Of a DNA stretch of 25,287 nt, positions 7,790 through 25,186 are shown piece after piece; the stretch's first letter is position 1, and every line of letters begins with the position of its first letter. Origin of the DNA: Longimicrobiales bacterium (GTDB taxonomy: Bacteria; Gemmatimonadota; Gemmatimonadetes; Longimicrobiales; Gaopeijiaceae); NCBI GenBank assembly GCA_965197725.1, contig CBDANQ010000026.1:1-25287 (forward strand), in the 5' to 3' direction. A program made the position numbers and the translations under genes. The notes under the pieces are model-generated. The model was not told where the DNA came from, searched no databases, and saw only the letters and a list, made by a program, of their open reading frames with translations.

Positions 7790-8200
7790 CTAGCCGTTCA
7801 GCTCTACCGTAGCATGGCCCGGCGAAGTGACCTCTCCGGCTTCGTTCTTTACGAAGATCTCCACCGTGACACGACGGTTGTCGGCATCGATCTCGGTGAC
7901 GACACCACCGGTCGTCAGCGTTTCGCCCAGATACGCCGCGCGCCGGTTGCTGTAGTCGAACCCGACCAGCCGCCCATCTTCGCCTACCCAGTTGATCACA
8001 CACTGCGACAGCCAGTCTCCCTGCAGCGGCCCGTCGATGACGATGCCTGGGTATTTCTCTACCTCGATGGTGTAACGCTCGTCGTAATGGATCCGCTGTG
8101 CGTTCCAGACCGCCGCGTTGTACATGAACAGCGACATGTTGGTCGCGGTGAAGTCTCGGCTCGGAAGCGAGTCTCCGACGCTCAACTGGGACATCTTCAT
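7790..8200 (-). CDS. MaoC-like (hotdog-fold) dehydratase, catalytic half
   Basis: Motifs LFMYNAAVWNAQRIHYD, PGIVIDGPL and YLGETLT..G.V. GAGGT RBS before ATG 8200. Confidence 0.85.
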   Translation of the reverse strand: MKMSQLSVGDSLPSRDFTATNMSLFMYNAAVWNAQRIHYDERYTIEVEKYPGIVIDGPLQGDWLSQCVINWVGEDGRLVGFDYSNRRAAYLGETLTTGGVVTEIDADNRRVTVEIFVKNEAGEVTSPGHATVELNG

Positions 8201-8204
8201 CGGT

Positions 8205-8663
8205 TTACCTCGCAATCATCGTTCGAATCTCATCGAGCACCGGCTCGCCGTCGGCGGTCTTCACCTCCAGCGTGCGCTCGGTGAAGATCAGCGGTCCGGT
8301 CGCTCCTTGCTTCTCGAGCAGATTGGTGATGCGCTGCGTCCCGATCAAGCGGTCACCGGGCCTGATCGACCGATGCAGCCGCAGCTTGGTTCCGCCAGCC
8401 ATCACGCGCTTCAGCGGCAGCTTGGGGCCAGCACCATCTCGCGCAAGCCCGTCGGGACGCATGTTCGCCATTTGCTGCAGCCGCTCGAACAGGTTGAAGA
8501 TAAACATCGGTGGGGCCTCGTCGCCGATCACGTATTTTTGCTGCACCTGCTCGGTTGCGATCGCGTATTTGACGATATCTCGACGGCTGATTTCGACCTC
8601 GACCGGAGGCTCGGGCTTACCGATCCAAGATAGATGCTCGTCGGTCAGCAATGAAGGCATCAT
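8205..8663 (-). CDS. MaoC dehydratase N-terminal-type (FAS1-like/HadA-like) hotdog protein
   Basis: Motifs WIG..E, ISRRDIVKYAIA, APPMF, GGT.L.LHR.IRPGD.L and KQG..GPLIF. Start at 8663 or 8660. Confidence 0.85.
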   Translation of the reverse strand: MMPSLLTDEHLSWIGKPEPPVEVEISRRDIVKYAIATEQVQQKYVIGDEAPPMFIFNLFERLQQMANMRPDGLARDGAGPKLPLKRVMAGGTKLRLHRSIRPGDRLIGTQRITNLLEKQGATGPLIFTERTLEVKTADGEPVLDEIRTMIAR

Positions 8664-8766
8664 GCGACTCCGTTCGCGATTGTGTTGGCACTCGCAGCGC
8701 GCACCCAGCAAGCGGCTTTCACCCTTAGTTGGGGACTGGCCGTCGTCGCAACTCCCGGCACCGGCG

Positions 8767-9336
8767 TCATGCGTAAATATTGTCTCCGACGCCCATCATG
8801 CGGGAGACCCCCTCGTTCTCCTGGGGGACCGATGGGCCGTCCCGGTCCGTCGGGTAAGGGTGCCACAGACCGAGCACGTCGTTGAGCTCGGGGTACTTCG
8901 CAACCGCCTTGGCGTTGTCGCCAACGGCTACCGTCTCGGACCACGTGTGAATGGGCTGGAGGTAGCTGCGCCCGTAGATGAAGGGAAGGGTAATGCGCAT
9001 CCCGGGGTTGTTCCGTGGCCGGGAGCCGTGCCAGATGGCGAGCGAGCCGGCACGGCCTACGAGCGGCACCGGCTGAACCGGGGCGTTCTCTTCCCACCAG
9101 TTCGCCTCGTCGGTTCGAGGTATGCGCCCGAACCGGTGGCTACCCGGGACGAGAACGGTCGGACCGTCCTCCTGGTCGGTGTAGTCGGTGAGTAGCCATG
9201 AGATGTTCACGAGCTGCGCCCATTCGGGGAGTGGGGAGGGCACACCGTGCGTGTCGGTATGCAGACGCATGTAGCCGTCCGGATTGAGTCGATCGGGCGT
9301 GCCGATGGTCTTGATGATCGCCGGTGTGCCGAACGT
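8767..9336 (-). pseudogene. 5'-truncated phytanoyl-CoA dioxygenase (PhyH, Fe/2OG) family gene
   Basis: Contains LHTD, NISWLLTDYT..DGPT.LVPGSH and AGSLAIWHG, but the reading frame emerges directly from the GGT-like stop. The N-terminal region present in the intact paralog at 24381..25181 is missing, and the distal-His region is 5 aa short. Confidence 0.75.
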
Positions 9337-11030
9337 CAGCGCTTGAGCCCGCCGGCCACGCCCATGCGGCGCGGGTCTGCGGTCGCCCCGAGCTTGCCCG
9401 TGCTCTCGTCGCGCCAGCACACCTGGAACGAGCCCATGTGGAAGTCGTACACGGGGGTCACGCGCAGGCCGACGCCGAGCCGCGCCAGAGCAGCTTGGGC
9501 CTCGTCGCTGACGCGGTCCTCCATGTTGAAGGAGTTGCCCTCGTCCATCGGGCCCATGCGCGGAGCGTCCACCGCCGGGTAGGGGTCCATCTCGAAGTCG
9601 AGCAGATTCGTGAGGACCTGCGGCACGGTGAAGGCCACGTTGCCCGGTGAGCCGAGCGAGTACACGGGAGCGCCATCTCTGAGCACCATGGTGTTGCCAA
9701 TGGTGCTGCGCAGGCGGAACCCTTTCCGGATCTTGGCGTCGATCGGACTCGAGTTCGAGCCGAAGGTGGCGTGCGAGCCCACCATCGGTACCCCTCCGAC
9801 GACCATGCCGGGAATGCCACCCGATTGGAGCGTGTTCATCATCTGCACCCAGTTTCCCTCTCGATCGACGACGGCGAGCTCGCAGCTCCCGGCGGGCTGA
9901 TGCTGGCGGCTGCTTCCGCCGGTCGGCTTGCCCGCGTGCACGAAGCCGAAACCAGGATCACCCGGCCCCTTGGTAAGCGCGGTGTGCTGCGTAAGGTCGA
10001 CCTTTGGTCGGGAGCCCGAGATCAGCCGGGCCAGCATGCGGTGGTACGCGTCGTCGAGCAGCACGTCTAGCGGGACGCCCTGCCCCTTCGGGTCGTTCGC
10101 GTACTCGTAGTGCTGCTGACCCTTGCGCAGCGCGTGCGCCATCGCGTAGAGCGCGTCCCCCGAGCCCGGCTCCATCTCGCGCACTCCGAGGTGCCTCAGG
10201 ATACCGAGCACGATCGCGCAGAAGATGCCCTGGAGCTCGGGCGGCCCGAGGCTCGCCACTTCGTACTCGTGGTGCGGGAAGCAGACCGGGTCGACCCAGC
10301 GCGGCGGTGTCTCGGTCATGTGCTTCTTCTTGATCTTCCAGCCCATCTCGTTGGCCTTGCGGATGAACTGCTCCGCCCAGCCGCCGGTGATCATGTAGTC
10401 GGGGCCTTCTTTAGCGACGCCTTTTAGTGTCGAAGCCATCTCCACGCTACCGAAGCGCTCGCCGACGTTCGCGAAGAAGCCAGCCGGCATGTAGAAGGCG
10501 CGTCCCTCTGGCAAGTACGTGATGAAGTCCTGCGCCCACACGTTCACGCCGTACTCGAACGAAGAGACGGGGTGTCCCTCCTCGGCCCAGTCGATGGCGT
10601 CCTCGCAGAGGCGCGCCCACTTCAGGCTGCCGAAGCGCTCGTAGATGGCCTTGAGACCCGGCATGAAGCCGGGGATGCACGATGACGGTGGACTGACGGC
10701 GTAGCCGACCGACATGCGCGAGACGGGCTTGTGCGGGCGCAGCCCGGCCGGGAAGGTGCCGCTCGACTCGAGCTGGTGGAGCTGGCCGGTTGCCGCCTCG
10801 TAGTAGAGGAACGTGACCGTACCTGTATGGTTGGTCATGAAGGGCTCGACGGCCGCCTGCACCATGCACCCCGCGATGGCCGCGTCGGCGGCGTTCCCAT
10901 CCTCCTTCAGGACCTCCTCGATCGTCTCCGTGACGATCGCGTTGTCCGTGCTGACGGCGGCGCGGAGGCCGGTCAACGGCTCCTTGGATCCGGGATTCCG
11001 CACGTAGCGAGAGACGGGCTTTCGAGCCAT
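9336..11030 (-). CDS. Gamma-glutamyltransferase-family Ntn hydrolase with non-canonical active site
   Basis: Motifs GNAADAAIA...AAVEP, IPG...GL, RFGSL.W..L...AI..AEEG, VVDREGN, GSPG, AVDAPR and ADPRR.G. Nucleophile position reads S-C-E instead of T-T-H. Probable start ATG 11030. Confidence 0.88.
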   Translation of the reverse strand: MARKPVSRYVRNPGSKEPLTGLRAAVSTDNAIVTETIEEVLKEDGNAADAAIAGCMVQAAVEPFMTNHTGTVTFLYYEAATGQLHQLESSGTFPAGLRPHKPVSRMSVGYAVSPPSSCIPGFMPGLKAIYERFGSLKWARLCEDAIDWAEEGHPVSSFEYGVNVWAQDFITYLPEGRAFYMPAGFFANVGERFGSVEMASTLKGVAKEGPDYMITGGWAEQFIRKANEMGWKIKKKHMTETPPRWVDPVCFPHHEYEVASLGPPELQGIFCAIVLGILRHLGVREMEPGSGDALYAMAHALRKGQQHYEYANDPKGQGVPLDVLLDDAYHRMLARLISGSRPKVDLTQHTALTKGPGDPGFGFVHAGKPTGGSSRQHQPAGSCELAVVDREGNWVQMMNTLQSGGIPGMVVGGVPMVGSHATFGSNSSPIDAKIRKGFRLRSTIGNTMVLRDGAPVYSLGSPGNVAFTVPQVLTNLLDFEMDPYPAVDAPRMGPMDEGNSFNMEDRVSDEAQAALARLGVGLRVTPVYDFHMGSFQVCWRDESTGKLGATADPRRMGVAGGLKR

Positions 11031-11059
11031 TGGGGGAAACCGCGAGTTAATTGGCAGAG

Positions 11060-11068
11060 ATCTTACCA
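11060..11068 (-). promoter_or_regulatory. Candidate extended -10 promoter (TGgTAAGAT) for the GGT-like gene
   Basis: Minus strand TATTGGTAAGAT in an AT-rich spacer, about 30 nt upstream of ATG 11030. Confidence 0.45.
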
Positions 11069-11088
11069 ATATCGCGGGCGGTGTGGTG

Positions 11089-12003
11089 TCACCCGCGGAA
11101 GGCTGGCAACACCTCGGTCGCCATGAGACGGTGATTCTCTTGCAGGTGGCTCGACGGACACGCCGACGCGAGGATCACGGTGGAGGCGCCTGCGTCAGCA
11201 TATTCGCGAAGGCGGGCGATGCAATCTTCCGTGCTTCCCGCTAGCGCGTACTTACCGACCAGCTTCGAGAAGTCCTGGTTGTACTGAACCGAGAGCTGCT
11301 CCGTCGCCATCTCAAGGCCGCGCTCGCGCTCCTCGCTGACCGCAAAGAACAGAAATACGCCCGGGGTTACGGGATCGCTGCGACCGAAGTCCGCCCGGTA
11401 GCGGGCAACGGTTTTGATGCTCTCGGCGAGCATCTCGGGCGTGTACATGTAGGGCAGCCAGCCGTTGGCAAAGCGCGCGGTGCGCTTCATCGCTGCCTCG
11501 CGCCTGCCCGCAACCCAGATCGGAGGATGCGGCTTCTGGACCGGTTGCGGGGCCAACGTAACGCCGGGGAGTCGCGTGAAGCGCCCGTCAAAGTGGACCT
11601 TCTCTTCGGTCCACAAACGGGTCAGGACTTCGAGCGCTTCGTCGGTGCGCACGCCGCGCTCCTTCACGGGGACCCCGCAGGCCTCGAATTCCGGGGCAAA
11701 CTCACCCCCAACACCTACGCCCAGGTGGAAGCGTCCCCCGGAGACGACGTCGAGAGCGGTGACCTGCTTGGCAAGCAGTGCCGTCCCGTAGAGAGGAACG
11801 AGGGTGATGGTGCTCATCAGCTTGATCCGCTCCGTCGCGCCCGCGGCCGCCGCTAGAGAGATCAGGCCGTTGCCGGTCGGCCCGTGGAAAAAGACGTGCT
11901 CTCCGGCCGTGACGAACTGATAGCCGAGGTCCTCGGCTTGCCGTGCTGCCAGTGCGACGTCATCGAGCCGACGCAATGAGAGGCCAAATTCGATCTCGGA
12001 CAT
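11089..12003 (-). CDS. LLM-class (luciferase-like) flavin/F420-dependent oxidoreductase
   Basis: Motifs AEDLGY..V..GEH, AAAAGATERIKL, LAKQV.ALD.VSGGRF.LGVG.G, EF.ACGV, PVQKPHPPIWVAG and R.ARFANGW. GGAGG RBS. Confidence 0.93.
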   Translation of the reverse strand: MSEIEFGLSLRRLDDVALAARQAEDLGYQFVTAGEHVFFHGPTGNGLISLAAAAGATERIKLMSTITLVPLYGTALLAKQVTALDVVSGGRFHLGVGVGGEFAPEFEACGVPVKERGVRTDEALEVLTRLWTEEKVHFDGRFTRLPGVTLAPQPVQKPHPPIWVAGRREAAMKRTARFANGWLPYMYTPEMLAESIKTVARYRADFGRSDPVTPGVFLFFAVSEERERGLEMATEQLSVQYNQDFSKLVGKYALAGSTEDCIARLREYADAGASTVILASACPSSHLQENHRLMATEVLPAFRG

Positions 12004-12049
12004 GAAGAGTTGCCTCCAGCTTCGGGGTATTCCCGTTCAAGACCGTGAG

Positions 12050-12868
12050 CTATTGGCTCACGTAGATACCGCCGTTTGGTGAGAGAACTTGACCGGTTAC
12101 GAAGCTCGACTCCTCGCTCGCCAGGTAGACGGCTGCCCAGGCGATGTCGTCGGGTTGGCCGAGGCGCCGCAGCGGGGTCCCGGCGGCAACATGCGAGAAG
12201 ATCGCACGGATCGGCTCGGTCCCCTCGGTCTCGACAAAACCAGGAGCGAGCGAGTTTACGCGAATATTGCGGCTCGCCAGCTCCTTGGCGAGAGAGCGCG
12301 TGAATCCCATGATCGCCGCTTTGGCCGTGCAGTAGTCAATCGCACCGGCGGTTCCGTTCGAGCCCTGGATCGACCCCATGTTGATGATCACGCCCGAATT
12401 CTGAGGACTCATGATGCGCAGTGCTTCTCGGCTGCAGAAGAAGGTTCCATTCACATGGACGCCTATCATGCGATGCCATGCGGCGTCGCTGAGATTCAGC
12501 GTAAAGTCCCAGTGGGTCTTGATCTGCCCATGCTCCTGCATCTCGGCGGCCTGCTTTCCTGCCGTTTCGAGCATTTCACTCACGTGGGCCTCGCTGTGGA
12601 GGTAGAATCCGGCGTTGTTCACCAGGATGTCGAGGCGGCCGTAGCGCTCCGCAACCTGCGCGAACATGCCCGCGACGCCGGCCGAATCGGATACATCGGC
12701 AACGATGGCGTCACCATCGACTTCTTTGGCGGTTGCCTCCGCAGCCTCTCGCCTCAGGTCGTTGATGATGAGTTGTGCACCTTCGGCGTGAAAACGGCGC
12801 GCAATGCCCGCTCCGATGCCCGAACCGGCACCGGTGACCAGGGCGAGTTTTCCGTCGAGTCGATTCAT
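12050..12868 (-). CDS. Short-chain dehydrogenase/reductase (FabG-like SDR)
   Basis: Motifs TGAGSGIG, LDILVNNAG, IINMGS, YCTAK, NIRVNSLAPG and FVTGQ.L..NGG. Confidence 0.95.
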   Translation of the reverse strand: MNRLDGKLALVTGAGSGIGAGIARRFHAEGAQLIINDLRREAAEATAKEVDGDAIVADVSDSAGVAGMFAQVAERYGRLDILVNNAGFYLHSEAHVSEMLETAGKQAAEMQEHGQIKTHWDFTLNLSDAAWHRMIGVHVNGTFFCSREALRIMSPQNSGVIINMGSIQGSNGTAGAIDYCTAKAAIMGFTRSLAKELASRNIRVNSLAPGFVETEGTEPIRAIFSHVAAGTPLRRLGQPDDIAWAAVYLASEESSFVTGQVLSPNGGIYVSQ

Positions 12869-12904
12869 GGAGCCTTCCGTTGCACGTCGGCCATCGAGGT
12901 GTGT

Positions 12905-13828
12905 CTACGCGGAGAGCTTCAGGGCTTCGGCCAGCTCGTGAAGGCGGTCCGGACTTGTCAGGAATTGGTAGTGAGTGATCATGCCTGGCGGCGCGGGCAT
13001 CTTCTCGGGTGAGCCGGGCACGTAGTTGAATAGGAAGCCGTTGAATCCCAGTTCCTGGTAGGAACCAATCAAGTCGTGCATCGCCTGGATCGACTCGAAC
13101 GCGGTCCGCTCCGCGAAGCCGCACAAGAGCCAGCGATCGATGGACTCTGGGTCGCGGCCGGCGTCGCTGACGTACTGGGAAAAGCGATCCGTGAGGGCCC
13201 TCGTCTCTTCTAGAGTCCGCACCTGGCCCTCCATAAACTCCATCTCACAAGCCACCCAAGCGTCCGCGTGCCTCGCGGCTATGCGCACGGACCGGGGTCC
13301 ATCAGCGGCCACCAACAGGCGCGGTCGGGGTCGCTGCAGCGGCTTTGTAAGCATCAGAGCTTCAGCCACCTCGTAGTACTCACCCTTGTACGTTGTGACC
13401 TCCTGTCGAAGCATCTGGTCGACGACCGTCACGAATTCTCCCAGGCGATCCACGCGTTCGCGCAAGGACCACATCGGTACGCCGGTCATGCTGTGGTCGA
13501 AGGGCGAGCCGCCTGCGCCCAGGCCCACTTCCAGCCGTCCGCCGGAGATGTGATCCACCGTGAGCGCGTGTTGGGCGATCACGGCTGGGTGCCGGTAGAT
13601 GGGGCTCGAGATCAGGCTTCCGATGCGGATTCGCTGTGTCGCGTTCGCCAGTGCTGCGAGCAGTGTCCAACACTCGAGCCAATCCGTTCTCCCAAATGGA
13701 TTGGCGAAGTGATCGGCCAAGAAAGCGCTGTCGAAGCCCGTCGTTTCCAGATCCTCGAAGTGCGCGAGCACATCAGGCCAACTGTGTTGTTGGAGGAATT
13801 GAACTCCGAAATGGGGGCGGGTACTCAA
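12905..13828 (-). CDS. LLM-class (luciferase-like) flavin/F420-dependent oxidoreductase
   Basis: Motifs GFDSAFLADH, ECWTLLAALA..TQRIRIG, RHPAV.A....TVDHISGGRLE.GLGAG, PLQRPRP and ARHADAW. TTG start with GGAGA RBS. Confidence 0.92.
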   Translation of the reverse strand: MSTRPHFGVQFLQQHSWPDVLAHFEDLETTGFDSAFLADHFANPFGRTDWLECWTLLAALANATQRIRIGSLISSPIYRHPAVIAQHALTVDHISGGRLEVGLGAGGSPFDHSMTGVPMWSLRERVDRLGEFVTVVDQMLRQEVTTYKGEYYEVAEALMLTKPLQRPRPRLLVAADGPRSVRIAARHADAWVACEMEFMEGQVRTLEETRALTDRFSQYVSDAGRDPESIDRWLLCGFAERTAFESIQAMHDLIGSYQELGFNGFLFNYVPGSPEKMPAPPGMITHYQFLTSPDRLHELAEALKLSA

Positions 13829-13913
13829 CGTTTTCTCTCCAGGGTGTTCGTTAGCTCAGGAGGCACCAAGCGTACATGGAATCCCCGCGTCGTGGGGGTG
13901 GCGGTCGCAGGCC

Positions 13914-15569
13914 TCAGCTCGAATCGGATGGATCGTACCCGTACTCCCGGGCCGCCGTCTCGGGGGTGACAAATCCGTCCTCGAGGTCACGCTGCACGCG
14001 CTCGCGGGGGCGATCGCGCGGATCGCCGAAGCCGCCCCCGCCCGCCTCGACCAGCGTGATCCGGTCGCCGGGCGCGAGCTTGTAACGCCCCTTCGGATCG
14101 ATGGGAGATCCGTTGATCCGGTGCTCGCGCCGATGCCCGTCGCTCCCGCCCGCGAATCCGAGCGCAGCGAACTCGGTGCGGTTCGCCATGCACTGCACGA
14201 CGAACGGGTGCCCGCTGTCGTTTCGGATGACGATCTCCTGACCGAGTCCCCCACGCGAGGTGCCGGCGCCACCCGAGTCCGGCAGGAGGCGCTTGCTAAG
14301 GACGGTGGTGCTTGTCAGAGTCTCCCACACCTCCACCGGCACCACAGCCATGTTCGAGGGCCCGGGCAGGGTGTCGGCCCCATCGAGCCCAGCAAGCGCC
14401 CCGAAGCCGCCGGCCGCGAAGTAGATCGTCGACACGTCGTGCCCGTCCCGGTGCCGGCCCTGCACCGCGAGCAGGTTCATCATCCCGCAATCCGCCTGCA
14501 CCCGGTCCGGGGCGGCCTCGGCGAGCGCCCCGAAGAGCAGCGGTGAGACATAGTGCCCGATCATGTGGCGCGCCCCGGTCGCCGACGGGGGACGTGCGTT
14601 CAGGATGCAACCCTCCGGCGCAGTCGCGGTGATCGGCACGGTCATCCCGCCGTTGTTCGGCAGCTCCGGCACGGTAAGACACTTTGCGGTGTAGAGCACT
14701 ATGGCGCGCGCGTAGCAGAAAGGGACGTTGATCCCCCGGCGCACGCTCCCGCCGGTGCCCTCGAAGTCGGCGTGCAGTCGCCCATCGCCCACGTCAATTC
14801 GCACCGCGAGGTCGATCGGCGCGTCGATCCCCTCGATCGAGATCGTGTTGCGGTAGCTCCCGGGACGCATCTCGCGCAACCGCTCGCGGATCGCGCGCTC
14901 GGAACGCGTGCGGATCTCTAGAGAGAGCTCGCCGAAGCCGTCGAGCCCGTACTCGTCCAGGAACTCGAGGAGCATACGCTCGCCCACCGCGGTTGCGGTC
15001 ACGTTGGCCATCAGGTCGCCCACCACCTCCTCGGGGGCGCGCACGTTGGTGCGCACGAGGTCGATCACCAGCTCGTTGCGCCGTCCCGCCTCGAACAGCT
15101 TGCAGATCGGGAGCCGCAGCCCCTCGTGGTAGATCTCCTCGGCGGTGGCGCCGAAACCGAGGCCGCCCACGTCGGGCAGATGGGTGATGCTGATCACGTA
15201 GGCTACGATGCGATCTTGGCGGAACACCGGACGCATCACGTTGATGTCGAACATGTGTCCGGTACCGAACCACGGGTCGTTGGTGATCACTACGTCGCCG
15301 GGGCGCAGGGTCTCGGGCGGGAACCGCTCGAGCATGAAGCCGAGCGTCGCGGGAGCGGTGCCCATGAACACCGGCACGCTGTAGGTGCCCTGCGCCATCA
15401 GCTCGCCGTCCGCGTCGAGCACCGCCACCGTGAGATCGTAGCTCTCGGTCACGATGGTGGAGAACGAGGTCCGCACCAGGGCCGAGACGATCTCGTCGGA
15501 GATCGCCACCAGACGGTCCCACGCGATTCCGACCCCGACCGCGTCGAGCGCTGGACGCACAGCGCTCAC
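13914..15569 (-). CDS. hyuB: Hydantoinase B / oxoprolinase family subunit
   Basis: Motifs RTSFS....ESYD, LRPGDV.ITNDP..G.GH..D, HLPDVGG, IYHEGL, PVEVWE, DSGGAG..RGGLG and GGGGFGDP..R. GTG 15569 forms a GTGA overlap with the hyuA stop. Confidence 0.92.
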   Translation of the reverse strand: MSAVRPALDAVGVGIAWDRLVAISDEIVSALVRTSFSTIVTESYDLTVAVLDADGELMAQGTYSVPVFMGTAPATLGFMLERFPPETLRPGDVVITNDPWFGTGHMFDINVMRPVFRQDRIVAYVISITHLPDVGGLGFGATAEEIYHEGLRLPICKLFEAGRRNELVIDLVRTNVRAPEEVVGDLMANVTATAVGERMLLEFLDEYGLDGFGELSLEIRTRSERAIRERLREMRPGSYRNTISIEGIDAPIDLAVRIDVGDGRLHADFEGTGGSVRRGINVPFCYARAIVLYTAKCLTVPELPNNGGMTVPITATAPEGCILNARPPSATGARHMIGHYVSPLLFGALAEAAPDRVQADCGMMNLLAVQGRHRDGHDVSTIYFAAGGFGALAGLDGADTLPGPSNMAVVPVEVWETLTSTTVLSKRLLPDSGGAGTSRGGLGQEIVIRNDSGHPFVVQCMANRTEFAALGFAGGSDGHRREHRINGSPIDPKGRYKLAPGDRITLVEAGGGGFGDPRDRPRERVQRDLEDGFVTPETAAREYGYDPSDSS

Positions 15570-17704
15570 GAGACCGGGCCTGCGGCGGCCGCAACCGCGG
15601 CAGTGGTCTCCACCCGCGCGCCGAGCACGGCGACCAGGTTCGAGGCCGCATCGACCGTGACCCGATCGGCCGGCCCGACGACCACGGTGGACTCGCGCTC
15701 CTCGACCAGGGCCGGCCCCTCGATCGTGGCGTCGCGGGCGAGTGCGTAACGGTCGTAGACAGGGGTATCGATCCACCCGTGCCCGGCGAAGTACGCACGG
15801 CGCTCGCCCTTGCGTGCGCCCGCGGGCGATTGTGCGCCACCGCCCGCGATCGCATAGCCCGCATCGAGGCCGGGCGCGGGGCCGCGCGCCTCGACCTTCC
15901 AGGTTGTGATCACCAGCGGTGCGTCGAGGTAGGCGAAGGCAAAGAGCGTCTCGTAGCGGCGCCGGAAGAGCGCCGGAAGGTCGGCGAGGCACGCGCCCGG
16001 ATCCGCTCCGGCGGGCAGGGTCACCTCGATCTCGTGCCCCTGGCCGTGATAGCGCATGTCGAGACGGCGCTCGATCGCGATCGCGGAGGCGTCGAGCCCG
16101 GCCGCGAGGAGCGGGGTGCACGCCTCGGCCTCGATCGCGGCGAATGCGCCCGCGAACGTGACCGCATCCAGGTCGCGCACGAACCGCTGTCGGGTCTGGG
16201 CCACCTCGAACGCGAGGGGGCTCGCAAGCAGCCCGAGGGCGGACATCACCCCCGCTGCGACCGGGAATACCACGCGCGGGATGCCGAGCTTCCTCGCCAC
16301 CCCCAGTGCGTGTACCGGTCCCGAGCCGCCGAACGCGATCATCGACCCTGCCCGGTAGTCGAAGCCGCGCTCGGAGGCGTGGATGCGGAAGGCGCGAGCG
16401 ACGTCCTCGCTCACGATGTCGTGGATGCCGGAGGCGGCTCGCTCGAGCGCGAGCCCGAGCGGCGCGGCGACACGCGTCTCGACGGCGCGCTCAGCCGCCC
16501 CGCGATCGAGCGCCATCTCGCCGCCCAGGAAGAAGCCGGGGTCGAGGTAGCCGAGCACGAGGTTCGCGTCGGTGAGCGTCGCCTCGGTCCCGCCGCGTGC
16601 GTAGCACGCGGGTCCGGGATCCGCCCCGGCGCTGCGCGGCCCCACCCGGATCGTGCCACGGGCATCGATCCCAGCAATGCTGCCCCCGCCCGCACCGATC
16701 TCGATCATGTCGATCACCGGGGTGCGCAGAGGCAGCCCGCTGCCCGCCTTGAACTCGTGCTCGCGCGCGACCTCGAGCGAGTACACCTTCATCGCGTCGC
16801 CGTCGCGAACCAGTGCCCCCTTCGCGGTCGTGCCGCCCATGTCGAACGAGAGCAGGTCCGGGAGCCCGAGCGCGCGGCCCTGGAACACCGACATCCGCGC
16901 GCCGGCGGCGGGCCCCGACTCGACCACCCGCACCGGGAGGCGCCGCGCGGTCTCGGGCGCCAGGGTGCCGCCGCTCGAGCTCATCACGTGGAGCCGACCG
17001 CGGAAGCCGAGCGACGCGAGCCCGCTCTCGATGCGCTCGAGGTAGCGGTCGAACATCGGACGGGTGAACGCGTTGACGCAGGTCGTGGTGAAGCGCTCGA
17101 ACTCGCGGCGTCCCGGGAAGACCTCCGAAGAGGTCGAGACCGAGACACCCGGAAACCGGGACTCGACCAGCTTGTGCAGCGCGACCTCGTGCGTCGGATT
17201 CGCGTACGCGTGCAGGAGACAGATCGCGAGCGCCTCGATGCCCTCGCGCTCGACGAGATCGCGCACCGCAATCTCGGCCGCGTCGAGATCGAGCTCGGTC
17301 TCGACGGTGCCGTCGAAGCGCACCCGCTCGCGGACCTCGCGCCGCAGCGCACGGGGCACGAGAGGATCGGGGAAGGTGATGCGCAGATCGAAGATGTCGT
17401 AGCGCTTCTCGTGACGCATATCGAGAATGTCCCGGAAGCCGTCCGTCGTCAGCATCCCGGTTCGCGCACCCTTTCGCTCGATGACGGCGTTGGTGACGAG
17501 CGTCGTACCGTGCACGACCTCGCTGACTCGCCCGACGTCGACCGCCTCACGTGCGAGGAGCGCCGCGACCCCGTCTACGACCGCAACGGAGGGATCCTCG
17601 GGGGTAGTGAGCTGCTTGGAGATCGCGAGGGCGCCGCTCTCGGCGTCGAAGAGCGCGAAGTCCGTAAAGGTACCCCCGATGTCGATGCCGAGGCGGTAGC
17701 TCAT
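15566..17704 (-). CDS. hyuA: Hydantoinase A / oxoprolinase family subunit (ATP-binding)
   Basis: Motifs GIDIGGTFTD, VHGTTL.TNA, HAYANP.HE, REFER..TT..NA, ESGPAAG, DMGGTT, IGAGGGS, VGP.SAGADPGPACY, TDAN, FGGSGP.H and RY.GQ.HE. ATG 17704 forms an ATGA overlap with the dgdA stop. Confidence 0.95.
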   Translation of the reverse strand: MSYRLGIDIGGTFTDFALFDAESGALAISKQLTTPEDPSVAVVDGVAALLAREAVDVGRVSEVVHGTTLVTNAVIERKGARTGMLTTDGFRDILDMRHEKRYDIFDLRITFPDPLVPRALRREVRERVRFDGTVETELDLDAAEIAVRDLVEREGIEALAICLLHAYANPTHEVALHKLVESRFPGVSVSTSSEVFPGRREFERFTTTCVNAFTRPMFDRYLERIESGLASLGFRGRLHVMSSSGGTLAPETARRLPVRVVESGPAAGARMSVFQGRALGLPDLLSFDMGGTTAKGALVRDGDAMKVYSLEVAREHEFKAGSGLPLRTPVIDMIEIGAGGGSIAGIDARGTIRVGPRSAGADPGPACYARGGTEATLTDANLVLGYLDPGFFLGGEMALDRGAAERAVETRVAAPLGLALERAASGIHDIVSEDVARAFRIHASERGFDYRAGSMIAFGGSGPVHALGVARKLGIPRVVFPVAAGVMSALGLLASPLAFEVAQTRQRFVRDLDAVTFAGAFAAIEAEACTPLLAAGLDASAIAIERRLDMRYHGQGHEIEVTLPAGADPGACLADLPALFRRRYETLFAFAYLDAPLVITTWKVEARGPAPGLDAGYAIAGGGAQSPAGARKGERRAYFAGHGWIDTPVYDRYALARDATIEGPALVEERESTVVVGPADRVTVDAASNLVAVLGARVETTAAVAAAAGPVS

Positions 17705-18978
17705 GCCGCGCGCGTGCACTCGACGAGTGCCTGATCGAGGATCGTCACCGCGGTATCGATCTGATCGCGGGACACGGTGAGCGGTGGCGCGATCCGGAAC
17801 ACGTTGGCCTGCGAGCGGCGCCCGATGTTAAGGCTCGCCCCTAGCTCGAGGCAGCGCCGGCTGACCGCCGTCCCCAGATCGAGCGCGGGTCGTTTGCTGC
17901 GCCGGTCTAGGACCAGCTCCAGCCCGAGCAGGAGGCCGCGGCCGCGGACGTCGCCGACCGCTTCGTGTCGCTGCTGCAGCTCGCGGAGCAGCGCCTTCAA
18001 GTACGTCCCGAGCTCGCGGGCCCGCTCGGCCAGCTTGTCGCGCACAACGATCTCGATCACCTTCCGCCCGACCGCGGCCGGGAGCGGATCCGCGGCGTGG
18101 GTCGTGTAGAAGAGGTAGTCGCGCTCGAAGCAGGTCTGCTCTAGCGCACGCGAGGTGATCGTCGCCGATAGCGGCAACCCCGCCCCCAGGGTCTTCGACA
18201 GGGTGAGCACGTCGGGCACCACCCCGTCGTGCTCGAACGCGAACAGGTCGCCCGTGCGCCCGAGACCGGTCTGGGCCTCGTCCACGACGAGGAGCATGCC
18301 GCGCGCGCGACAGCGTTCGGCAAGCGCCGGGAGGTACCCCTTCGGCAGCTCGATGATGCCGCCAGAGCTCAGAATCGGCTCGACGATGCATGCCGCGAGA
18401 CTGCCGACCGACTGGCGATCGATCAACTCGAAGCCGTAGTCAAGCTCGCCCTCCCAGTCGTAGCGACTCTCGCTCGCGAACGGCGAGCGATAGGCGTGCG
18501 GGGTCGGCAGCGCGAGCGCACCGGGCAGTGCTGGCCCGTAGCCGCGGCGCCCGCCATTGAAGGTCGCGGACGCCGCCCCTCCGGTCACGCCGTGCCAGGA
18601 CTGGTCGAAGGCGACGGTCTCGAAGCCGCCGGTCGCGAGCTTCGCGATCTTGAGCGCGGCCTCGTTCGACTCGCCGCCGGTACTGAGCGGCAGCACCGCA
18701 GAGAGCGACGGCGGCAGGATCGCGGCGAGCGCCTCTGCGAACTCGATGACCGGCGTCGAGAGGAAGCTGCTGTGAAGGTGGTCGAGCGCGCCGACTGCCT
18801 CGCGCACGGTGGCGACGATCTCGGGGTGCGAGTGACCGAGGATCGCGCTCATCTGACCAGAGGTGAAGTCGAGGATCGCCCGGTCGTCGCGATCGTAGAG
18901 ACAGGCGCCCTCGGCGTGCTCGATCAGCAGATCGGCGAACTCGCCACCGTAGCGAAAGACGTGGTGATCAGCGGGCAC
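17701..18978 (-). CDS. dgdA: 2,2-dialkylglycine decarboxylase-like PLP enzyme (aminotransferase class III)
   Basis: LDFTSGQMSAILGHSHPEIV, QSWHG.TG, ELDY.F.LIDRQS.G.LAA, EPILSSGGIIELP.GY, DEAQTG.GRTG, LTLSKTLGAGLPL, YLFYTTH..DPLPAAVG and VFRIAPPLTVS match Burkholderia cepacia DGD as I recall it, not just a generic class III enzyme. GGAGGA RBS before the GTG. Confidence 0.85.
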   Translation of the reverse strand: MPADHHVFRYGGEFADLLIEHAEGACLYDRDDRAILDFTSGQMSAILGHSHPEIVATVREAVGALDHLHSSFLSTPVIEFAEALAAILPPSLSAVLPLSTGGESNEAALKIAKLATGGFETVAFDQSWHGVTGGAASATFNGGRRGYGPALPGALALPTPHAYRSPFASESRYDWEGELDYGFELIDRQSVGSLAACIVEPILSSGGIIELPKGYLPALAERCRARGMLLVVDEAQTGLGRTGDLFAFEHDGVVPDVLTLSKTLGAGLPLSATITSRALEQTCFERDYLFYTTHAADPLPAAVGRKVIEIVVRDKLAERARELGTYLKALLRELQQRHEAVGDVRGRGLLLGLELVLDRRSKRPALDLGTAVSRRCLELGASLNIGRRSQANVFRIAPPLTVSRDQIDTAVTILDQALVECTRAA

Positions 18979-19018
18979 GGGCCGCTCCTCCGAGCGCGCG
19001 GCGACACGCGCCTGGCCC

Positions 19019-19049
19019 GATTCGACGTAGAATCATCTGGCGTAGAGTA
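19019..19049. promoter_or_regulatory. Divergent promoter region with 16-bp near-palindrome
   Basis: GATTCGACGTAGAATC (19019-19034, 14/16 self-complementary) contains plus-strand TAGAAT (19028-19033). Minus-strand TACTCT at 19044-19049. Confidence 0.4.
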
Positions 19050-19070
19050 GAGAAGAGAGGAGGCACGCTG

Positions 19071-20930
19071 ATGAGATGGTTCGTTATGGCATCGTTCGCC
19101 GTCACGGTGTTGCTGCCGGTGGTGACCTGGGGGCAAGTGACAGACTCAGCATACTACGTGATGTACGAGGAGCGGTGCGGGGTCTGTCATGGAACGACCG
19201 GTGCCGTCACCAACGCGGTCAGTCGCGAGGCCCTCCGAGCCATCTCCCCGGAACGGGTGCTCGAATCGCTGACGACCGGCGCAATGGCGGCCAATGCGAG
19301 CGGGCTCTCGGAGCAGGAGAAGCGCGGGCTGGCCGCGTGGGTGACCGGACGCCCGTTCGGACACGCGGCGGACCGCACAGCTGCGGCGATGCCGAACCGC
19401 TGTGCCGCTGGCATGCCGATGGGCGATCCGTCGACCGGGCCGCACTGGAACGGCATGAGCCCCGATCCCACGACGAGCGCTCGCTTTCAGCCCACCGCTG
19501 CCGCGGGGCTGACGGTGGATCAGGTGCCGCAGCTGCGGCGGAAGTGGGCGTTCGGCTTTCCGGATGGCAGCGCGGTCCGGGGCCAGCCGACGGTGGCTGG
19601 AGGTCGGGTATTCGTGGGTAGCGACAACGGGGTGGTGTACGCACTGGACGCGCAGACCGGCTGTGTGCACTGGTCCTTTGACGCCGGGGAAGCCGTCGTG
19701 ACGGCCGTGAGCGTGGGGAGCGTGCCCGGGTCGCAAGGCCGTCATGCCGCGTACTTTGGAGATTGGCGGGCGAACGTCCACGCCGTGGACGCCGAGACGG
19801 GCGAGTCGCTGTGGACGGTGGGCGTGGACTACCATGAGATGACGAAGATCACGGGGTCGCCGGTGCTCGATGCCCAGGGGGAACGCCTGTATGTCCCGGT
19901 CGCCTCGTGGGAGAAGGGCGCCGGCCAGATCAACCTCTCGTACGAGTGCTGCACCTCCCAGGGCAGCGTGGTGGCACTGGAGGCAGGAACCGGGCGGCAG
20001 ATCTGGAAGACCTATTCGATTCCCGAGCGTCCCAGGCCGGTCAGAAAGAACTCCGCCGGTACGCAGCTGTACGGCCCAGCGGGTGCCGGCATCTGGGTGG
20101 CGCCCACGCTCGACTACAGGCGCCGCGCACTCTACGTCGGTACGGCCAACGGCTACATCGATGTGCCGGACTCGGAGTCCAGTGACGCCATCATTGCCTT
20201 CGACCTCGACACCGGCAAGCGGCGCTGGTCGACTCAGCTGCTAGCCAACGACATGAACTGCGCAAGCGGAGGGACGGATGCAGACATCAGGCTCAACTGC
20301 CCCGGTTTCGTATTGAATCCGAACGACGATGTGTCGGGGTCGCCTGTTCTGTACACGCTGCCGAATGGACGTCAGATTCTGATCGCGGGGCAGGAGAGCG
20401 GAAGGATCACGGCACTGGATCCCGACAAGAGCGGCGCCGTGCTGTGGGTCGCGCAGGCTGGTGACGTGACTCCCCGAGACCAGGGCGGCGGCCTGGGCGC
20501 TGCGGCGGATGGAGAGCTCTACTACAGAGCCCTCGGGTTCCCCGACAAGACCGGTGCGATGGCTGCGCTCCGGCCTGCAACGGGAGAGCGGGTCTGGTAC
20601 ACCCCGCACGCCAAGCCGACGAGCTGCTCCGATCCCGAGGCGGACTGGTGCAGCTCGGGACTGTTCGCAGCAGCGACGGTGATCCCCGGCGCCGTGTTCG
20701 CAGGGGCGAGGGACGGCACCCTGCGTGCGTACTCGACGGGGGACGGCGAGATCCTGTGGGAGTACAACACCATGCAGGAGTACGAGACGGTGAACGGCGT
20801 GCGGGCCAAAGGGGGCACGATCGGTGGCCACGGGCCGGCGATCGTGGGGGGCATGCTGTTCATCGGAACCGGTTACGGCATCAGATACAGCGCCCCGGGC
20901 AACGTGCTGCTCGCGTTTGGCGTCGAGTGA
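19071..20930 (+). CDS. PQQ beta-propeller dehydrogenase with N-terminal cytochrome c (polyvinyl-alcohol dehydrogenase-like quinohemoprotein)
   Basis: Signal peptide, heme motif CGVCH, GL...QVP.L..KWAFGFP, repeated A.DA.TG...W propeller motifs, vicinal CC (YECC), TVNG..AKGG and C-terminal PGNVLLAF. AGGAGG RBS. Confidence 0.88.
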   Translation: MRWFVMASFAVTVLLPVVTWGQVTDSAYYVMYEERCGVCHGTTGAVTNAVSREALRAISPERVLESLTTGAMAANASGLSEQEKRGLAAWVTGRPFGHAADRTAAAMPNRCAAGMPMGDPSTGPHWNGMSPDPTTSARFQPTAAAGLTVDQVPQLRRKWAFGFPDGSAVRGQPTVAGGRVFVGSDNGVVYALDAQTGCVHWSFDAGEAVVTAVSVGSVPGSQGRHAAYFGDWRANVHAVDAETGESLWTVGVDYHEMTKITGSPVLDAQGERLYVPVASWEKGAGQINLSYECCTSQGSVVALEAGTGRQIWKTYSIPERPRPVRKNSAGTQLYGPAGAGIWVAPTLDYRRRALYVGTANGYIDVPDSESSDAIIAFDLDTGKRRWSTQLLANDMNCASGGTDADIRLNCPGFVLNPNDDVSGSPVLYTLPNGRQILIAGQESGRITALDPDKSGAVLWVAQAGDVTPRDQGGGLGAAADGELYYRALGFPDKTGAMAALRPATGERVWYTPHAKPTSCSDPEADWCSSGLFAAATVIPGAVFAGARDGTLRAYSTGDGEILWEYNTMQEYETVNGVRAKGGTIGGHGPAIVGGMLFIGTGYGIRYSAPGNVLLAFGVE

Positions 20931-20945
20931 CGCTTCCCGAAGCGT
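20930..20945. terminator. Short hairpin between convergent genes
   Basis: ACGCTT-CCCG-AAGCGT directly after the TGA of the PQQ gene. Weak U-tract. Confidence 0.25.
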
Positions 20946-20954
20946 TGCGGACCT

Positions 20955-22277
20955 TTAGCTGGACGACGCCGCAGACTCCATCGCTCGCGGGCCGAGTTCC
21001 AGCTCTTCCAGATCCGTCTTCAGCGTGCGCGCGGCAAGAAAGTAGTGGGCAGCGCACCACAAATTCAGAAACGCCAGAAAGAACAGAGCGACCCGCAGCG
21101 ACTCTTGACCGTAGTCTGCGGCAAACAGGTCGCTCAAGATCCCGACCAGCTGCGGCCCGAACCCCAGTCCGATGATGTTGAGGATGAATAGCGTGATGCT
21201 CGACGCCAATGCGCGCATCCGGACGTTGACCAGGCCTTGGACCAGCGCGAAGGTCGGCGCCAGGAAAAATCCGCCAAAAAACGCGGGGACGAGGTACACC
21301 GCGAGGAACGTCCAGAAGTCATCGACGACGAATACGAGCGCAAGGAACGGTACGTAGCCGCCCTTGGCGGCGGCCACCAGCCAGCAGCGCCAACGCTCGT
21401 CGCGCTTGGCCAACACGTCGACGAGCTTTCCAGCGGTAAAAGTCCCCAGGCCCCCGACGATGCCGGTCATCAAGGCGAGCGTCAGCCCGACTTCGGTCGG
21501 ACTCAGTCCGTGCGATCGCATGAGGAAGGACGGCATCCACAATACGAAGCCATAGCCAACGAACCCAGCCACCGATGCGCCTGCCACCAGATGACGAATC
21601 GACTTCACTCTCCACATCCGCGTCGCGACTGCGCTGAAAGGCGGCGCCTGGTCGTCGGATTGGCTCGCGACTTCCTCGCTCGCGCCGCGCTCAGGCTCCT
21701 GTGTCGTGAAGTACACCAGCGCTGCAATGACGAGGCCGGGCACGCCCACCGCAACGAAGGTCACGCGCCAGCCGAAGTGCTCGCTCATCCAGCCGCCGAC
21801 CAAGTAGGCGATCAAAAGGCCGACGTTGACGCCCAACGCGAATACGCCCATCGCGGTGCCGCGGGTGGCAGGTTCGAACAGATCCGCGATCACCGAATGG
21901 GAAGGTGGCGAGGAGCCCGCCTCGCCGCTCCCGACCCCGATGCGCGCGAGGGCAAGCTGGACAAACGTCTGCGCGACGCCACACAGCACCGTCATCAGGC
22001 TCCACACCGTGGTCGCGATTGCGATGATGTTGCGGCGATTCGTTCGGTCCGCAAGCATCGCGATAGGCATGCCTAGCGTCGCGTAGAAGATCGCGAAGGT
22101 CAGGCCGATCAAGAATCCCATCTGAGTGTCGCTGGCGTCGAGCTCGAGCTTGATCGGCTCCAGCAGGATGCCCATGATCTGCCGGTCCACGTGGCTCGAC
22201 GCATACACGGCGGTCAACACGCCGAGGACGTACCACTTGTACCGGGGCCTGGCAGCGATTCGATCACGAAGCGGCAT
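20955..22277 (-). CDS. MFS transporter, spinster family
   Basis: Motifs DRQI..IL.EPIK.EL..SDTQMG.L.G..FA.FY...G.P.A.LADR.NRRNII, ARIGVG.GEAG..PPSHS.IADLF and GWR..F...G.PG. About 12 hydrophobic segments. Start ATG 22277 (alternative GTG 22316). Confidence 0.92.
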   Translation of the reverse strand: MPLRDRIAARPRYKWYVLGVLTAVYASSHVDRQIMGILLEPIKLELDASDTQMGFLIGLTFAIFYATLGMPIAMLADRTNRRNIIAIATTVWSLMTVLCGVAQTFVQLALARIGVGSGEAGSSPPSHSVIADLFEPATRGTAMGVFALGVNVGLLIAYLVGGWMSEHFGWRVTFVAVGVPGLVIAALVYFTTQEPERGASEEVASQSDDQAPPFSAVATRMWRVKSIRHLVAGASVAGFVGYGFVLWMPSFLMRSHGLSPTEVGLTLALMTGIVGGLGTFTAGKLVDVLAKRDERWRCWLVAAAKGGYVPFLALVFVVDDFWTFLAVYLVPAFFGGFFLAPTFALVQGLVNVRMRALASSITLFILNIIGLGFGPQLVGILSDLFAADYGQESLRVALFFLAFLNLWCAAHYFLAARTLKTDLEELELGPRAMESAASSS

Positions 22278-22286
22278 GGCGGCGCC

Positions 22287-22317
22287 ACGATACTTCAGAT
22301 CCGTCCCGCGGTACACT
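22287..22317. promoter_or_regulatory. Back-to-back candidate -10 elements for MFS (TATCGT, minus) and hydrolase (TACACT, plus)
   Basis: Minus-strand TATCGT at 22287-22292, 9 nt before ATG 22277 with no RBS (leaderless-like). Plus-strand TACACT at 22312-22317 before an AGGAAGG RBS. Confidence 0.4.
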
Positions 22318-22341
22318 AGCCCAACAGGAAGGGCCCGATGA

Positions 22342-24324
22342 ATGGCGGTAGCTAGCTTTCAGATACTCTCGCGCGAGCCGTACGACGGGGGCACCGACTT
22401 TGGTTCGGTGGGGGCGTACGAGCAGATCAACGCCGTCGTCGACTACGCAGTCGACCCGGCTCATCCGCAGAACAGCGGAATCGTCGATCTCGCCCAGGCG
22501 GAGCGCGGCGGGGACGGCCTTGTTCACTTTCGCGGAGATGCCGTCCTCCTGCAGCCAGCCGACCCGTTGCGCGGACAGCGCGCGCTCCTGCTCGAGGTAC
22601 CGAACCGGGGCCGACGGACAGCGACGGGCATGTTCAATCGCAGCGCCCGGACGTTCGAGCCCACTCCCGAGATCGACGCCGGGGATGGCTTCCTGTTCCG
22701 CGAAGGCTGGTCGGTCGGTTGGTGCGGTTGGCAGTGGGACGTTCCTCGCGACGCGACGCGCATGGGGCTGGACGTGCCGATCCTCGTGGACCCCGCAGGC
22801 GCTCCCGTTGCGGACTGGCTTCAACTCCGGCTTCAGCTCCACGCCCCATGCGCATCGGTCAACCTCACGGATCAGCACGTCGGCTCGCTCGGCGTGCACA
22901 AGCGGATCCCCGCGGCGGACATCGACGATCCCGAGGCGAAGCTGCTCGCCCGGGATCGCCTCTGGGACGAGCCCGTCGAGCTCGGGCAGGACCAGTGGCG
23001 CTTCGCGCGAGCGGATGGCGACACCGTAGTCGCGGATCCAGAACACGTCTGGCTCCGCGGCGGCTTCGAGCCGGGCCGCATCTACGACTTGGTCTACCGC
23101 ACTGGGCGTTGCCCGGTGGCGGGCGTCGGGCTCCTCGCGGTTCGCGACCTGGCGGCCTTCTTTTCGAGCGACGGCGACGCGAACCCCGCGGCAGGCCGCA
23201 TCGACCACGTCGTGGGAACCGGCCAGTCTCAGTGCGGCCGCTTCCTGCGCACGTTTCTGCACCTTGGGCTGAACCGCACGGAGGACGGTGGAAGAGCGTT
23301 CGATGGAATCCTCGCGCACATTGCGGGCGGGCGCCGCGGCGAGTTCAACCACCGCCTCGCACAGCCGTCCGTACAGCCAACGCCGAGCTTCGGACACCGC
23401 TTTCCGTTTGCGGACAACGCGCAGACCGACCCGCGGTCAGGGAACACCGACGGTCTGCTGGCCCGGCTGCAGGAAGCTGGCTCCCTGCCCAAGGTGATCT
23501 ACACGAACACCGCAGCGGAGTACTGGCGCGGCGACGCCTCGCTCGCGCACACCTCCGTCATCGACGGAGGCGATGTCGCGCTTCCCGACGAGACTCGGCA
23601 CTACCTGTTCGCCTCCACCCAGCACGGCCCGGGCTCCCTGCCGCTGATGGACCTCAGTCTCTTCGGCAGCCGCGGGGGCAACTGCTTCAACGTCGTCGAT
23701 TACACGCCGCTCATGCGAGCGGCGCTCACGAATCTGCTTCGCTGGGTCGCCGACGATACGGCGCCACCCCCGAGCGTGGTCCCTCGCGCGAGCGAGGGGA
23801 CTGCGACCAGACGCGAGCAGGTGTTGGATGCCGTCTCGAAGATCCCGGGCATGGCTCGGCCGGACGGCAAGGGCCTGTGCACTCTTCGACCGATGGACCT
23901 CGGCCCGGGCGAGGCGTCCGGGGTTGGCTCCTTCCCCGCCCGCCCCCTAGGCGACGAGTACCCGTGCCGGGTCTCCGCGGTCGACGCAGACGGAAACGAG
24001 CTCGGCGGTATCCGCATGCCCGACGTCACCGTTCCCGTCGCAACCCACACCGGCTGGAACCCGCGCCACGCGAGCACCGGCGCGTCGGACCAGCTCTTGG
24101 AGTACCTGGGGTCCACAATCCCGTTCGCCGTCGATCGACAGACCCGCGAGGCCAGGGGAGACCCGCGAGCGTCGCTCGAAGAGCGCTATCGCGACGCGCA
24201 CGACTATCTGGACCGAGTTCGCGAGGCGGCAAAGCAACTGGCGACACAGGGCTACCTGCTCGCTGCCGACGTCGAGCTATGCGTCCGGCTAGCCAAACAC
24301 CGCTACGCCGCCTGCACCAGCTGA
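22342..24324 (+). CDS. Large alpha/beta-hydrolase-domain protein (uncharacterised family)
   Basis: Motifs FGSVGAYE, VDP..P.N..IVDL, EVPNRG, GWQWD, GFEPGRIY.LVY, G.GL.AVRD, nucleophile elbow GQSQCGRFLR, N.RLAQP, EYWRG, TQH and DADGNE.GGIR.P. No signal peptide seen. Confidence 0.8.
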   Translation: MAVASFQILSREPYDGGTDFGSVGAYEQINAVVDYAVDPAHPQNSGIVDLAQAERGGDGLVHFRGDAVLLQPADPLRGQRALLLEVPNRGRRTATGMFNRSARTFEPTPEIDAGDGFLFREGWSVGWCGWQWDVPRDATRMGLDVPILVDPAGAPVADWLQLRLQLHAPCASVNLTDQHVGSLGVHKRIPAADIDDPEAKLLARDRLWDEPVELGQDQWRFARADGDTVVADPEHVWLRGGFEPGRIYDLVYRTGRCPVAGVGLLAVRDLAAFFSSDGDANPAAGRIDHVVGTGQSQCGRFLRTFLHLGLNRTEDGGRAFDGILAHIAGGRRGEFNHRLAQPSVQPTPSFGHRFPFADNAQTDPRSGNTDGLLARLQEAGSLPKVIYTNTAAEYWRGDASLAHTSVIDGGDVALPDETRHYLFASTQHGPGSLPLMDLSLFGSRGGNCFNVVDYTPLMRAALTNLLRWVADDTAPPPSVVPRASEGTATRREQVLDAVSKIPGMARPDGKGLCTLRPMDLGPGEASGVGSFPARPLGDEYPCRVSAVDADGNELGGIRMPDVTVPVATHTGWNPRHASTGASDQLLEYLGSTIPFAVDRQTREARGDPRASLEERYRDAHDYLDRVREAAKQLATQGYLLAADVELCVRLAKHRYAACTS

Positions 24325-24380
24325 GTATCTGACAGAAGCTGCCGTACTCCCATCCTGCTCGCGACACGCCGACGCGAGAA

Positions 24381-25181: not shown

Positions 25182-25186
25182 CAGCT

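Follow-up and report, generated by a model that had tools for sequence, protein, structure and literature searches.

A probably imported dialkylglycine decarboxylase-family and HyuAB gene block in a Longimicrobiales genome: a candidate route for opening lactams to quaternary amino acids

We analysed a 25,287-nucleotide stretch of DNA (the window), contig CBDANQ010000026.1 of assembly GCA_965197725.1 from a Longimicrobiales bacterium (phylum Gemmatimonadota), and in particular a block of three genes on its minus strand. The first, here called dgdA (18978-17701), has a GTG start and encodes a 425-aa class-III pyridoxal 5'-phosphate (PLP) enzyme (PF00202) resembling dialkylglycine decarboxylase (DGD); the second, hyuA (17704-15566), encodes a 712-aa ATP-binding subunit (PF05378, PF01968 and PF19278), and the third, hyuB (15569-13914), a 551-aa metal-binding hydrolytic subunit (PF02538). 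A Shine-Dalgarno-like GGAGGAG on the same strand (18991-18985) lies 6 nt before the dgdA GTG, and successive genes share a stop/start overlap on the minus strand, ATGA at 17701-17704 between dgdA and hyuA and GTGA at 15566-15569 between hyuA and hyuB. An earlier reading of this DNA from its letters (the sequence-only reading) had described three minus-strand genes joined by two 4-bp overlaps behind one ribosome-binding site in a very GC-rich block, all of which we confirmed from the sequence. Four-base overlaps are a common feature of operons; those seen here suggest coupling, and perhaps co-transcription, yet they are not rare. A scan found no sigma-70 promoter or terminator consensus and a repeat scan was likewise uninformative, while the single RNA run (X20) yielded no evidence of expression, its two short pieces, one of them in hyuB, being nearly identical.

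The arrangement is physically secure over most of its length. Contigs from independent runs span the dgdA-hyuA junction (runs X1, X6, X8 and X10), the hyuA-hyuB junction (X2, X6 and X8) and the join between hyuB and the left flank (X6 and X8); together with the host-like flanks, these rule out a chimeric assembly at either gene junction and at the left flank. At the right edge (about 19000) no bridging piece was found among the listed independent-run contigs. At the left edge, between hyuB and the next gene (13859-13863, strand unassigned), the contigs of X6 (record 19) and X8 (record 25) carry 448 extra bases with a 5-base overlap, a strain-level indel.

The GC content of the block is 70.0%, compared with a mean of 64.6% for 5-kb chunks of the genome, and none of the 563 chunks reaches the value of the block; its tetranucleotide distance falls at the 99.8th percentile, and the flanks are host-like. 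All three genes also score above the ten flanking genes tested in a Markov comparison, hyuB only narrowly. The named members of the host's ribosomal protein L2 cluster belong to Gemmatimonadota. We did not find dgdA in 40 relatives, nor did it appear at E ≤ 1e-120 in a further 313 genomes of the host family (Gemmatimonadota), with five candidates scored in each, and across the phylum a DgdA of 55-63% identity, mostly of the classical type, is present in seven of 400 genomes. A distant HyuB occurs in 31 of the 40 relatives, the best being 42% identical, and the nearest named homologues are those of marine Gamma- and Alphaproteobacteria (up to 79% for HyuB and 77% for DgdA). Because a compositional outlier sits between host-like flanks, dgdA is missing from the family genomes and the best HyuB of the relatives reaches 42%, the trio is likely to be a compositionally foreign catabolic cassette that was acquired horizontally as one block, a point overlooked by the sequence-only reading. 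In composition the block comes closest to loci from a single gammaproteobacterial order, in part since some of these contain homologous genes, and a low-stringency comparison with contigs of other runs gave no clear foreign-lineage junction.

The best match of the PLP enzyme in the PDB is the DGD of Burkholderia (1dka; E = 1.4e-161, 541 bits), against 220 bits for the next family and less than 200 bits for 4-aminobutyrate (GABA) and omega-aminotransferases. It is 58-59% identical to homologues on Burkholderiales plasmids, and among described systems it resembles DgdA/DgdR of Burkholderia cepacia (1dka) and yeast DGD1 (PMC10169451, accessible text). Seven site residues of DGD, Q52, W138, S215, K272, Y301, N394 and R406, are conserved as Q42, W128, S205, K262, Y291, N384 and R395, and five of the six subsite residues named in the accessible text of PMC10169451 (Q52, W138, M141, S215, K272 and R406) are kept; the sixth, M141, is valine, as in one of eight plasmid dgdA genes. 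The enzyme differs from classical DGD at H69, F72, V131, G142, A295 and R387 (H79, F82, V141, G152, A305 and R397 in DGD numbering, with F79H, M82F and M141V among the changes and Q397 in DGD). H69 is found in 116 of 117 close homologues and R387 in all 117, whereas all eight plasmid sequences have F at the first position and Q, K or A at the second. We take F79 to be a pocket residue of DGD, and presumably N394 is one also; R387 may then lie near the substrate, given its nearness in sequence to N394 and R406. In a tree of 163 sequences, 137 that bear this signature form a group on a long branch, separate from all 15 DgdA of plasmids and Gemmatimonadota, with node support of 0.52 for the group as a whole and 0.97 for its 134-tip core.

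Judged from these residues and this tree, the PLP enzyme is a DGD-family member of an uncharacterised, remodelled subgroup rather than a classical DgdA. The DgdA label given by the sequence-only reading, which missed this distinction, therefore holds for the family (541 against 220 bits) but not for the classical enzyme, from which the fixed subgroup changes set it apart. The surroundings differ as well: the divergent neighbour of dgdA in the window encodes a cytochrome c/pyrroloquinoline quinone (PQQ)-type protein and not a LysR or Lrp regulator as in dgdRA, whereas seven of eight plasmid dgdA loci have a divergent regulator (LysR in six, Lrp in one) and none of the eight, out of 58 matches, has an annotated HyuAB. 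An AlphaFold model of the enzyme (56-sequence alignment) had a mean predicted local distance difference test score of 61, with active-site loops below 50, and was set aside, and the ESM Atlas returned family names and nothing further. A further DGD-like subgroup, at loci L098-L101 (40-44% identity), combines F138, Y141 and G301 with the retained Q52, K272 and R406, and may represent another unstudied specificity.

The assignment of HyuA and HyuB to the lactamase family in the sequence-only reading is borne out by three ATP motifs and four metal ligands. HyuA has DIGGTFTD (position 8), DMGGT (288) and GADPGP (360), which match the DxGGTxTD, DxGGT and GxxPGP motifs of the caprolactamase subunit CapA, and D45, H105, D108 and H130 of HyuB align to the Asp-His-Asp-His ligands D41, H99, D102 and H124 of CapB (motifs and ligands from the accessible text of PMC8453981). 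HyuB matches CapB at E = 9e-50, compared with 1e-20 for ApcD and 7e-17 for the Acx alpha subunit. However, the caprolactamase cut-offs are not reached (512 and 204 bits for NF050156 and NF050157, against 1000), and neither subunit matches a diagnostic 5-oxoprolinase model. R334, H335 and H339 of HyuB are invariant in all 39 subfamily sequences of at least 60% identity and align at or beside the CapB pocket residues T336 and M339, although 10 of 25 distant paralogues share R334; the three would be compatible with an anionic substituent on the ring. HyuAB is thus best described as a predicted ATP-dependent pair of the lactamase family and not a carboxylase.

The sequence-only reading had also seen no carbamoylase and no acetone-carboxylase gamma subunit. 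For the HyuC-type carbamoylase this stands, in that no protein of the 89%-complete genome passes the TIGR01879 cut-off (best 29 of 204 bits; nitrilase-family D-carbamoylases were not searched); for the gamma subunit (PF08882) nothing was found in the genome, but the control genomes gave no match either. Because no carbamoylase passes the cut-off, a lactam is favoured over a hydantoin as the substrate of HyuAB.

Several described systems share parts of this arrangement. In the caprolactam pathway of Pseudomonas jessenii, capAB and a class-III aminotransferase gene lie in one cluster (PMC6061476, accessible text), and the window likewise has a two-subunit ATP-dependent lactamase-type pair, with the same ATP motifs and Asp-His-Asp-His site, beside a class-III PLP gene. 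In contrast to that cluster, the order in the window is A-B and not B-A, the hydrophobic pocket region of CapB is replaced by Arg and His in HyuB, and the partner is of the DGD type and not an omega-aminotransferase, joined by a 4-bp overlap. The fused 5-oxoprolinase OplA and the ATP-dependent N-methylhydantoinase share their Pfam domains and catalytic motifs with the HyuAB in the window (E = 2e-121 and 7e-48 to PDB 7hk5), and so, by family, would the HyuAB of Pseudomonas NS671 and the IaaCE of Aromatoleum. In contrast to these, the subfamily in the window is uncharacterised and split into two genes, with no HyuC carbamoylase, creatininase or iaa genes adjacent. The trio may be thought of as working like a caprolactam-type pathway with a DGD-type partner, at scores below CapAB membership. 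We did not find a DGD-HyuAB pairing in the titles and abstract openings of the open-access literature, a search in which subscription papers lay mostly outside and supplements were excluded; a single paper there contains the names of both dialkylglycine decarboxylase and hydantoinase.

The interpretation that we tentatively place first, at somewhat under an even balance, is the opening of a lactam followed by decarboxylating transamination of the quaternary amino acid so released; the reactions, their order and the substrate all draw on knowledge of the families. HyuA would activate a small cyclic amide with ATP, and HyuB would hydrolyse the activated ring at its metal site to give a free alpha,alpha-disubstituted amino acid, which the DGD-type enzyme would decarboxylate and deaminate to a ketone or oxo-acid and CO2; the amino group would pass to pyruvate, yielding alanine and hence nitrogen. 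Of the two models in the sequence-only reading, the lactam version of its first corresponds to this: it stands as the best hypothesis and needs no carbamoylase, but the conservation that would be expected with it is only partial.

Evidence that the linkage recurs comes from contig sizes, two proteins being taken as co-located if the longest contig listed for each is of identical size, a fingerprint that bounds their distance only by 22-26 kb at the shortest. Among close copies (96-100% identity for dgdA), dgdA and hyuA share six contig sizes, five of which recur for hyuB as well. Outside this close group, a comparison of 243 DgdA with 171 HyuA contig sizes gave 14 matches of at least 20 kb, against 0.04 in shifted controls, and the smallest matching contigs of the other clades are 22.5, 26.0 and 26.6 kb, with further ones at 41,955, 47,119 and 63,775 bp. 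Matches at 2335 bp (short HyuA fragments against small dgdA contigs) and at 1549 were rejected as too short to hold both proteins, and those at 1549 and 8254 are at chance level (two seen, 0.7 expected). Six cluster pairs are linked: P0008/P0238, P0041/P0236, P0048/P0237 and P0036/P0240, which group together in both trees, and P0032/P0372 and P0086/P0280, which do likewise. This corresponds to at least six of the 116 listed DgdA clusters, with 16 DgdA and 9 HyuA clusters expanded. The dgdA-hyuA linkage thus recurs in two further clades, making three groups in all, which are 69-78% identical to each other. At locus L004, from a freshwater metagenome-assembled genome, hyuA and hyuB (64% and 68%) have close behind them a DGD-like gene that belongs to another subgroup (48%). 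The neighbourhood search proposed in the sequence-only reading, in which absence of the trio elsewhere would count against it, thus gives a divided answer: the linkage recurs in the two further clades, and at L004 another DGD-like gene takes the place of dgdA, but most orthologues of each part stand alone.

A considerable body of observations weighs against a joint pathway. No DGD-like gene was found in the flank examined at 37 of 38 close hyuB loci, and HyuAB of the window type is present at none of 27 wider dgdA-subgroup loci (L040, L046, L083-93, L126-134 and L171-175), four of which have distant Hyu paralogues (27-41%); many of the flanks of both genes end at contig ends. Both orthologues co-occur in four of 53 and 12 of 33 genomes of two proteobacterial orders, always apart, and this co-occurrence is not significant (Fisher p = 0.19 and 0.46; kin not independent). 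HyuAB has diverse neighbours, including coenzyme A (CoA)-transferases, a molybdenum hydroxylase, racemases, amidases and tripartite ATP-independent periplasmic (TRAP) transporters (107 of the 205 cluster representatives covered). For the remaining linked clades the evidence extends to contigs shared by dgdA and hyuA, and not to gene order, strand or hyuB; no genome of these clades turned up among 49 examined and no new one among 400 Gammaproteobacteria; in genomes of the order Arenicellales, dgdA occurs in seven of 243, with no Hyu gene in the flanks examined. Nor is a downstream pathway common to both shown, because the neighbours of hyuAB and dgdA loci share no close orthologue (best 45%; CoA-transferases 36-38%). 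With respect to the enzyme itself, DGD reportedly needed W138F and M141R to accept glutamate, whereas here position 141 is V and not R and W138 is kept, so that neither change is present; and H69 and R387 are only predicted to face the substrate.

The mostly solitary occurrence of both parts and the lack of significant co-occurrence speak for a rival explanation, that of separate scavenging enzymes that travel together in a catabolic island, acting on unrelated substrates, with overlaps that reflect compaction. Genomes that carry these genes often have 20-60 first-look Hyu candidates, which makes chance neighbours common, and in one alphaproteobacterial order dgdA is stably beside argJ and a NUDIX gene. 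On the other hand, the same orthologue groups share contigs in three groups that have diverged by up to about 30%, with matching trees; L004 pairs a different DGD-like gene with the same HyuAB subfamily; and the overlaps are tight. We consider this explanation unlikely on the whole, though a serious contender; should the genes work on different substrates, what is left would be an ordinary imported cluster together with an unstudied DGD subgroup.

Less probable is a caprolactam-like route in which the ring opened by HyuAB is an unbranched lactam (5-oxoproline is one possibility) and the PLP enzyme now transaminates without decarboxylation. Such a pathway has its precedent in capAB with an omega-aminotransferase (PMC6061476), the second half-reaction of DGD is an ordinary transamination (PMC10169451; both as given in their accessible text), and several positions are unlike classical DGD. 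Yet Q52, W138, S215, K272 and R406 of the DGD site are retained, the bit scores favour DGD over the GABA and omega-aminotransferases by 541 to less than 200, and the host probably already has a housekeeping oxoprolinase, as suggested by its other Hyu genes (contigs C5, C55 and C56) and the distant HyuB of its relatives. Among the Hyu genes of the host is a further hyuA-hyuB pair at locus L184 (G000:C5:6543-12783), with a creatininase-family gene and a phage integrase in its vicinity.

Quite improbable is the opening of a 5,5-disubstituted hydantoin by HyuAB, with a carbamoylase encoded elsewhere releasing the amino acid on which DgdA would act: hydrolysis of 5-substituted hydantoins is known for the HyuAB of Pseudomonas NS671 (PMC8453981, accessible text), and a dihydropyrimidinase gene lies in the window at 5652-7049, but no carbamoylase passes the cut-off noted above. 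The second model of the sequence-only reading, in which DgdA yields a ketone and CO2 and HyuAB re-carboxylates the ketone in the manner of acetone (AcxABC) or acetophenone (Apc) carboxylase, can be set aside as very remote, since, although these enzymes have homologous ATP- and metal-binding subunits of the same superfamily with the same metal tetrad (PMC8453981, accessible text), HyuB matches them far more weakly than it does the lactamases (1e-20 and 7e-17 against 9e-50) and is shorter (551 aa against 684-776 aa), the ApcC and ApcD models give 269 and 81 bits where their cut-offs are 1500, and the block has no further subunits.

Elsewhere, both parts of the trio occur in varied company. At L083, L128 and L130, a CoA-transferase III gene precedes the dgdA-subgroup gene on the same strand, with an acyl-CoA dehydrogenase too in L083 and L128, a context that would accord with an oxo-acid as the product and not with acetone. 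At L126 and L133, dgdA and a fused OplA-like gene of about 1200 aa (27-31% to the subunits in the window) diverge from each other, about 150 bp apart, and at L046:195-9281 the genes divergent to a dgdA of 77% identity are those for a TRAP transporter, a distant hyuB-hyuA pair and an ATP-grasp protein. For the HyuAB subfamily, L022:1-11620 has the tandem order hyuA-hyuB-threonine aldolase-like-hyuA-hyuB-hyuB-hyuB, tandem hyuB copies are also present in genomes G043, G808, G809 and G810, and at L178:3766-10591 a TldD/PmbA pair lies on the opposite strand between hyuA and hyuB. At L010, L012, L013, L015 and L034 the pair follows a molybdenum hydroxylase cluster and an IclR gene, together with a second HyuAB pair and a TRAP transporter, and alanine racemase in three of the five; these clusters resemble pathways such as iaa that hydroxylate and then open N-heterocycles.

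The remainder of the window consists of accessory catabolic genes, among them those for two luciferase-like monooxygenase (LLM) oxidoreductases, two PhyH dioxygenases, a tannase, and cyclodeaminase-like, MaoC-like and cytochrome c/PQQ proteins, with no housekeeping gene in the 23 open reading frames scanned; positions 8000-25287 have only short DNA matches, in four genomes of the same genus. The dihydropyrimidinase (plus strand) is ATP-independent and above the TIGR02033 cut-off, and it and a gamma-glutamyltransferase-like gene at 9336-11069 (minus strand) are host-like in composition; the two could act as feeders of cyclic amides or 5-oxoproline-type compounds.

Returning to lactam opening followed by decarboxylating transamination, the ring most likely bears a carboxylate, as in a 2-substituted 5-oxoproline or similar compound, which would fit because of the residue changes in both enzymes and because no carbamoylase is required. 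The leading named candidate, itself an improbable guess at the exact compound, is 2-methyl-5-oxoproline, which would be converted to 2-methylglutamate and then to levulinate and CO2. A natural residue of methyl-coenzyme M reductase is 2-(S)-methylglutamine (PMC9401015, accessible text), and this is a possible source, its cyclisation and environmental supply being presumed. In its broadest form the proposal is of a mobile pathway, found in more than one phylum of aquatic bacteria, for the salvage of 2-methyl-5-oxoproline or a similar 2-substituted pyroglutamate, for instance from the C-alpha-methylglutamine of that reductase, via 2-methylglutamate to levulinate, by means of a DGD subgroup retuned through His69 and Arg387 to accept an acidic quaternary amino acid; we regard this as doubtful, if slightly less so than the single named compound. 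If true, it would give the DGD family a natural substrate beyond 2-aminoisobutyrate (Aib) and isovaline. According to the accessible text of a 2021 paper, no enzyme other than DGD was at that time known to act on Aib (PMC7782822), and fungal peptaibols have been proposed as the source of DGD substrates (PMC10169451, accessible text).

Overall, the trio is real, appears to be imported and is partly conserved, with an activity and substrate that are predicted. A DGD subgroup of more than 130 sequences, linked in three groups to one lactamase subfamily, offers a concrete and cheap handle on the substrates of both. Lactam opening and enzymes for quaternary amino acids are both wanted in biocatalysis, and the pathway, if it operates as proposed, would supply a role for one of the numerous unassigned HyuAB paralogues of marine genomes.

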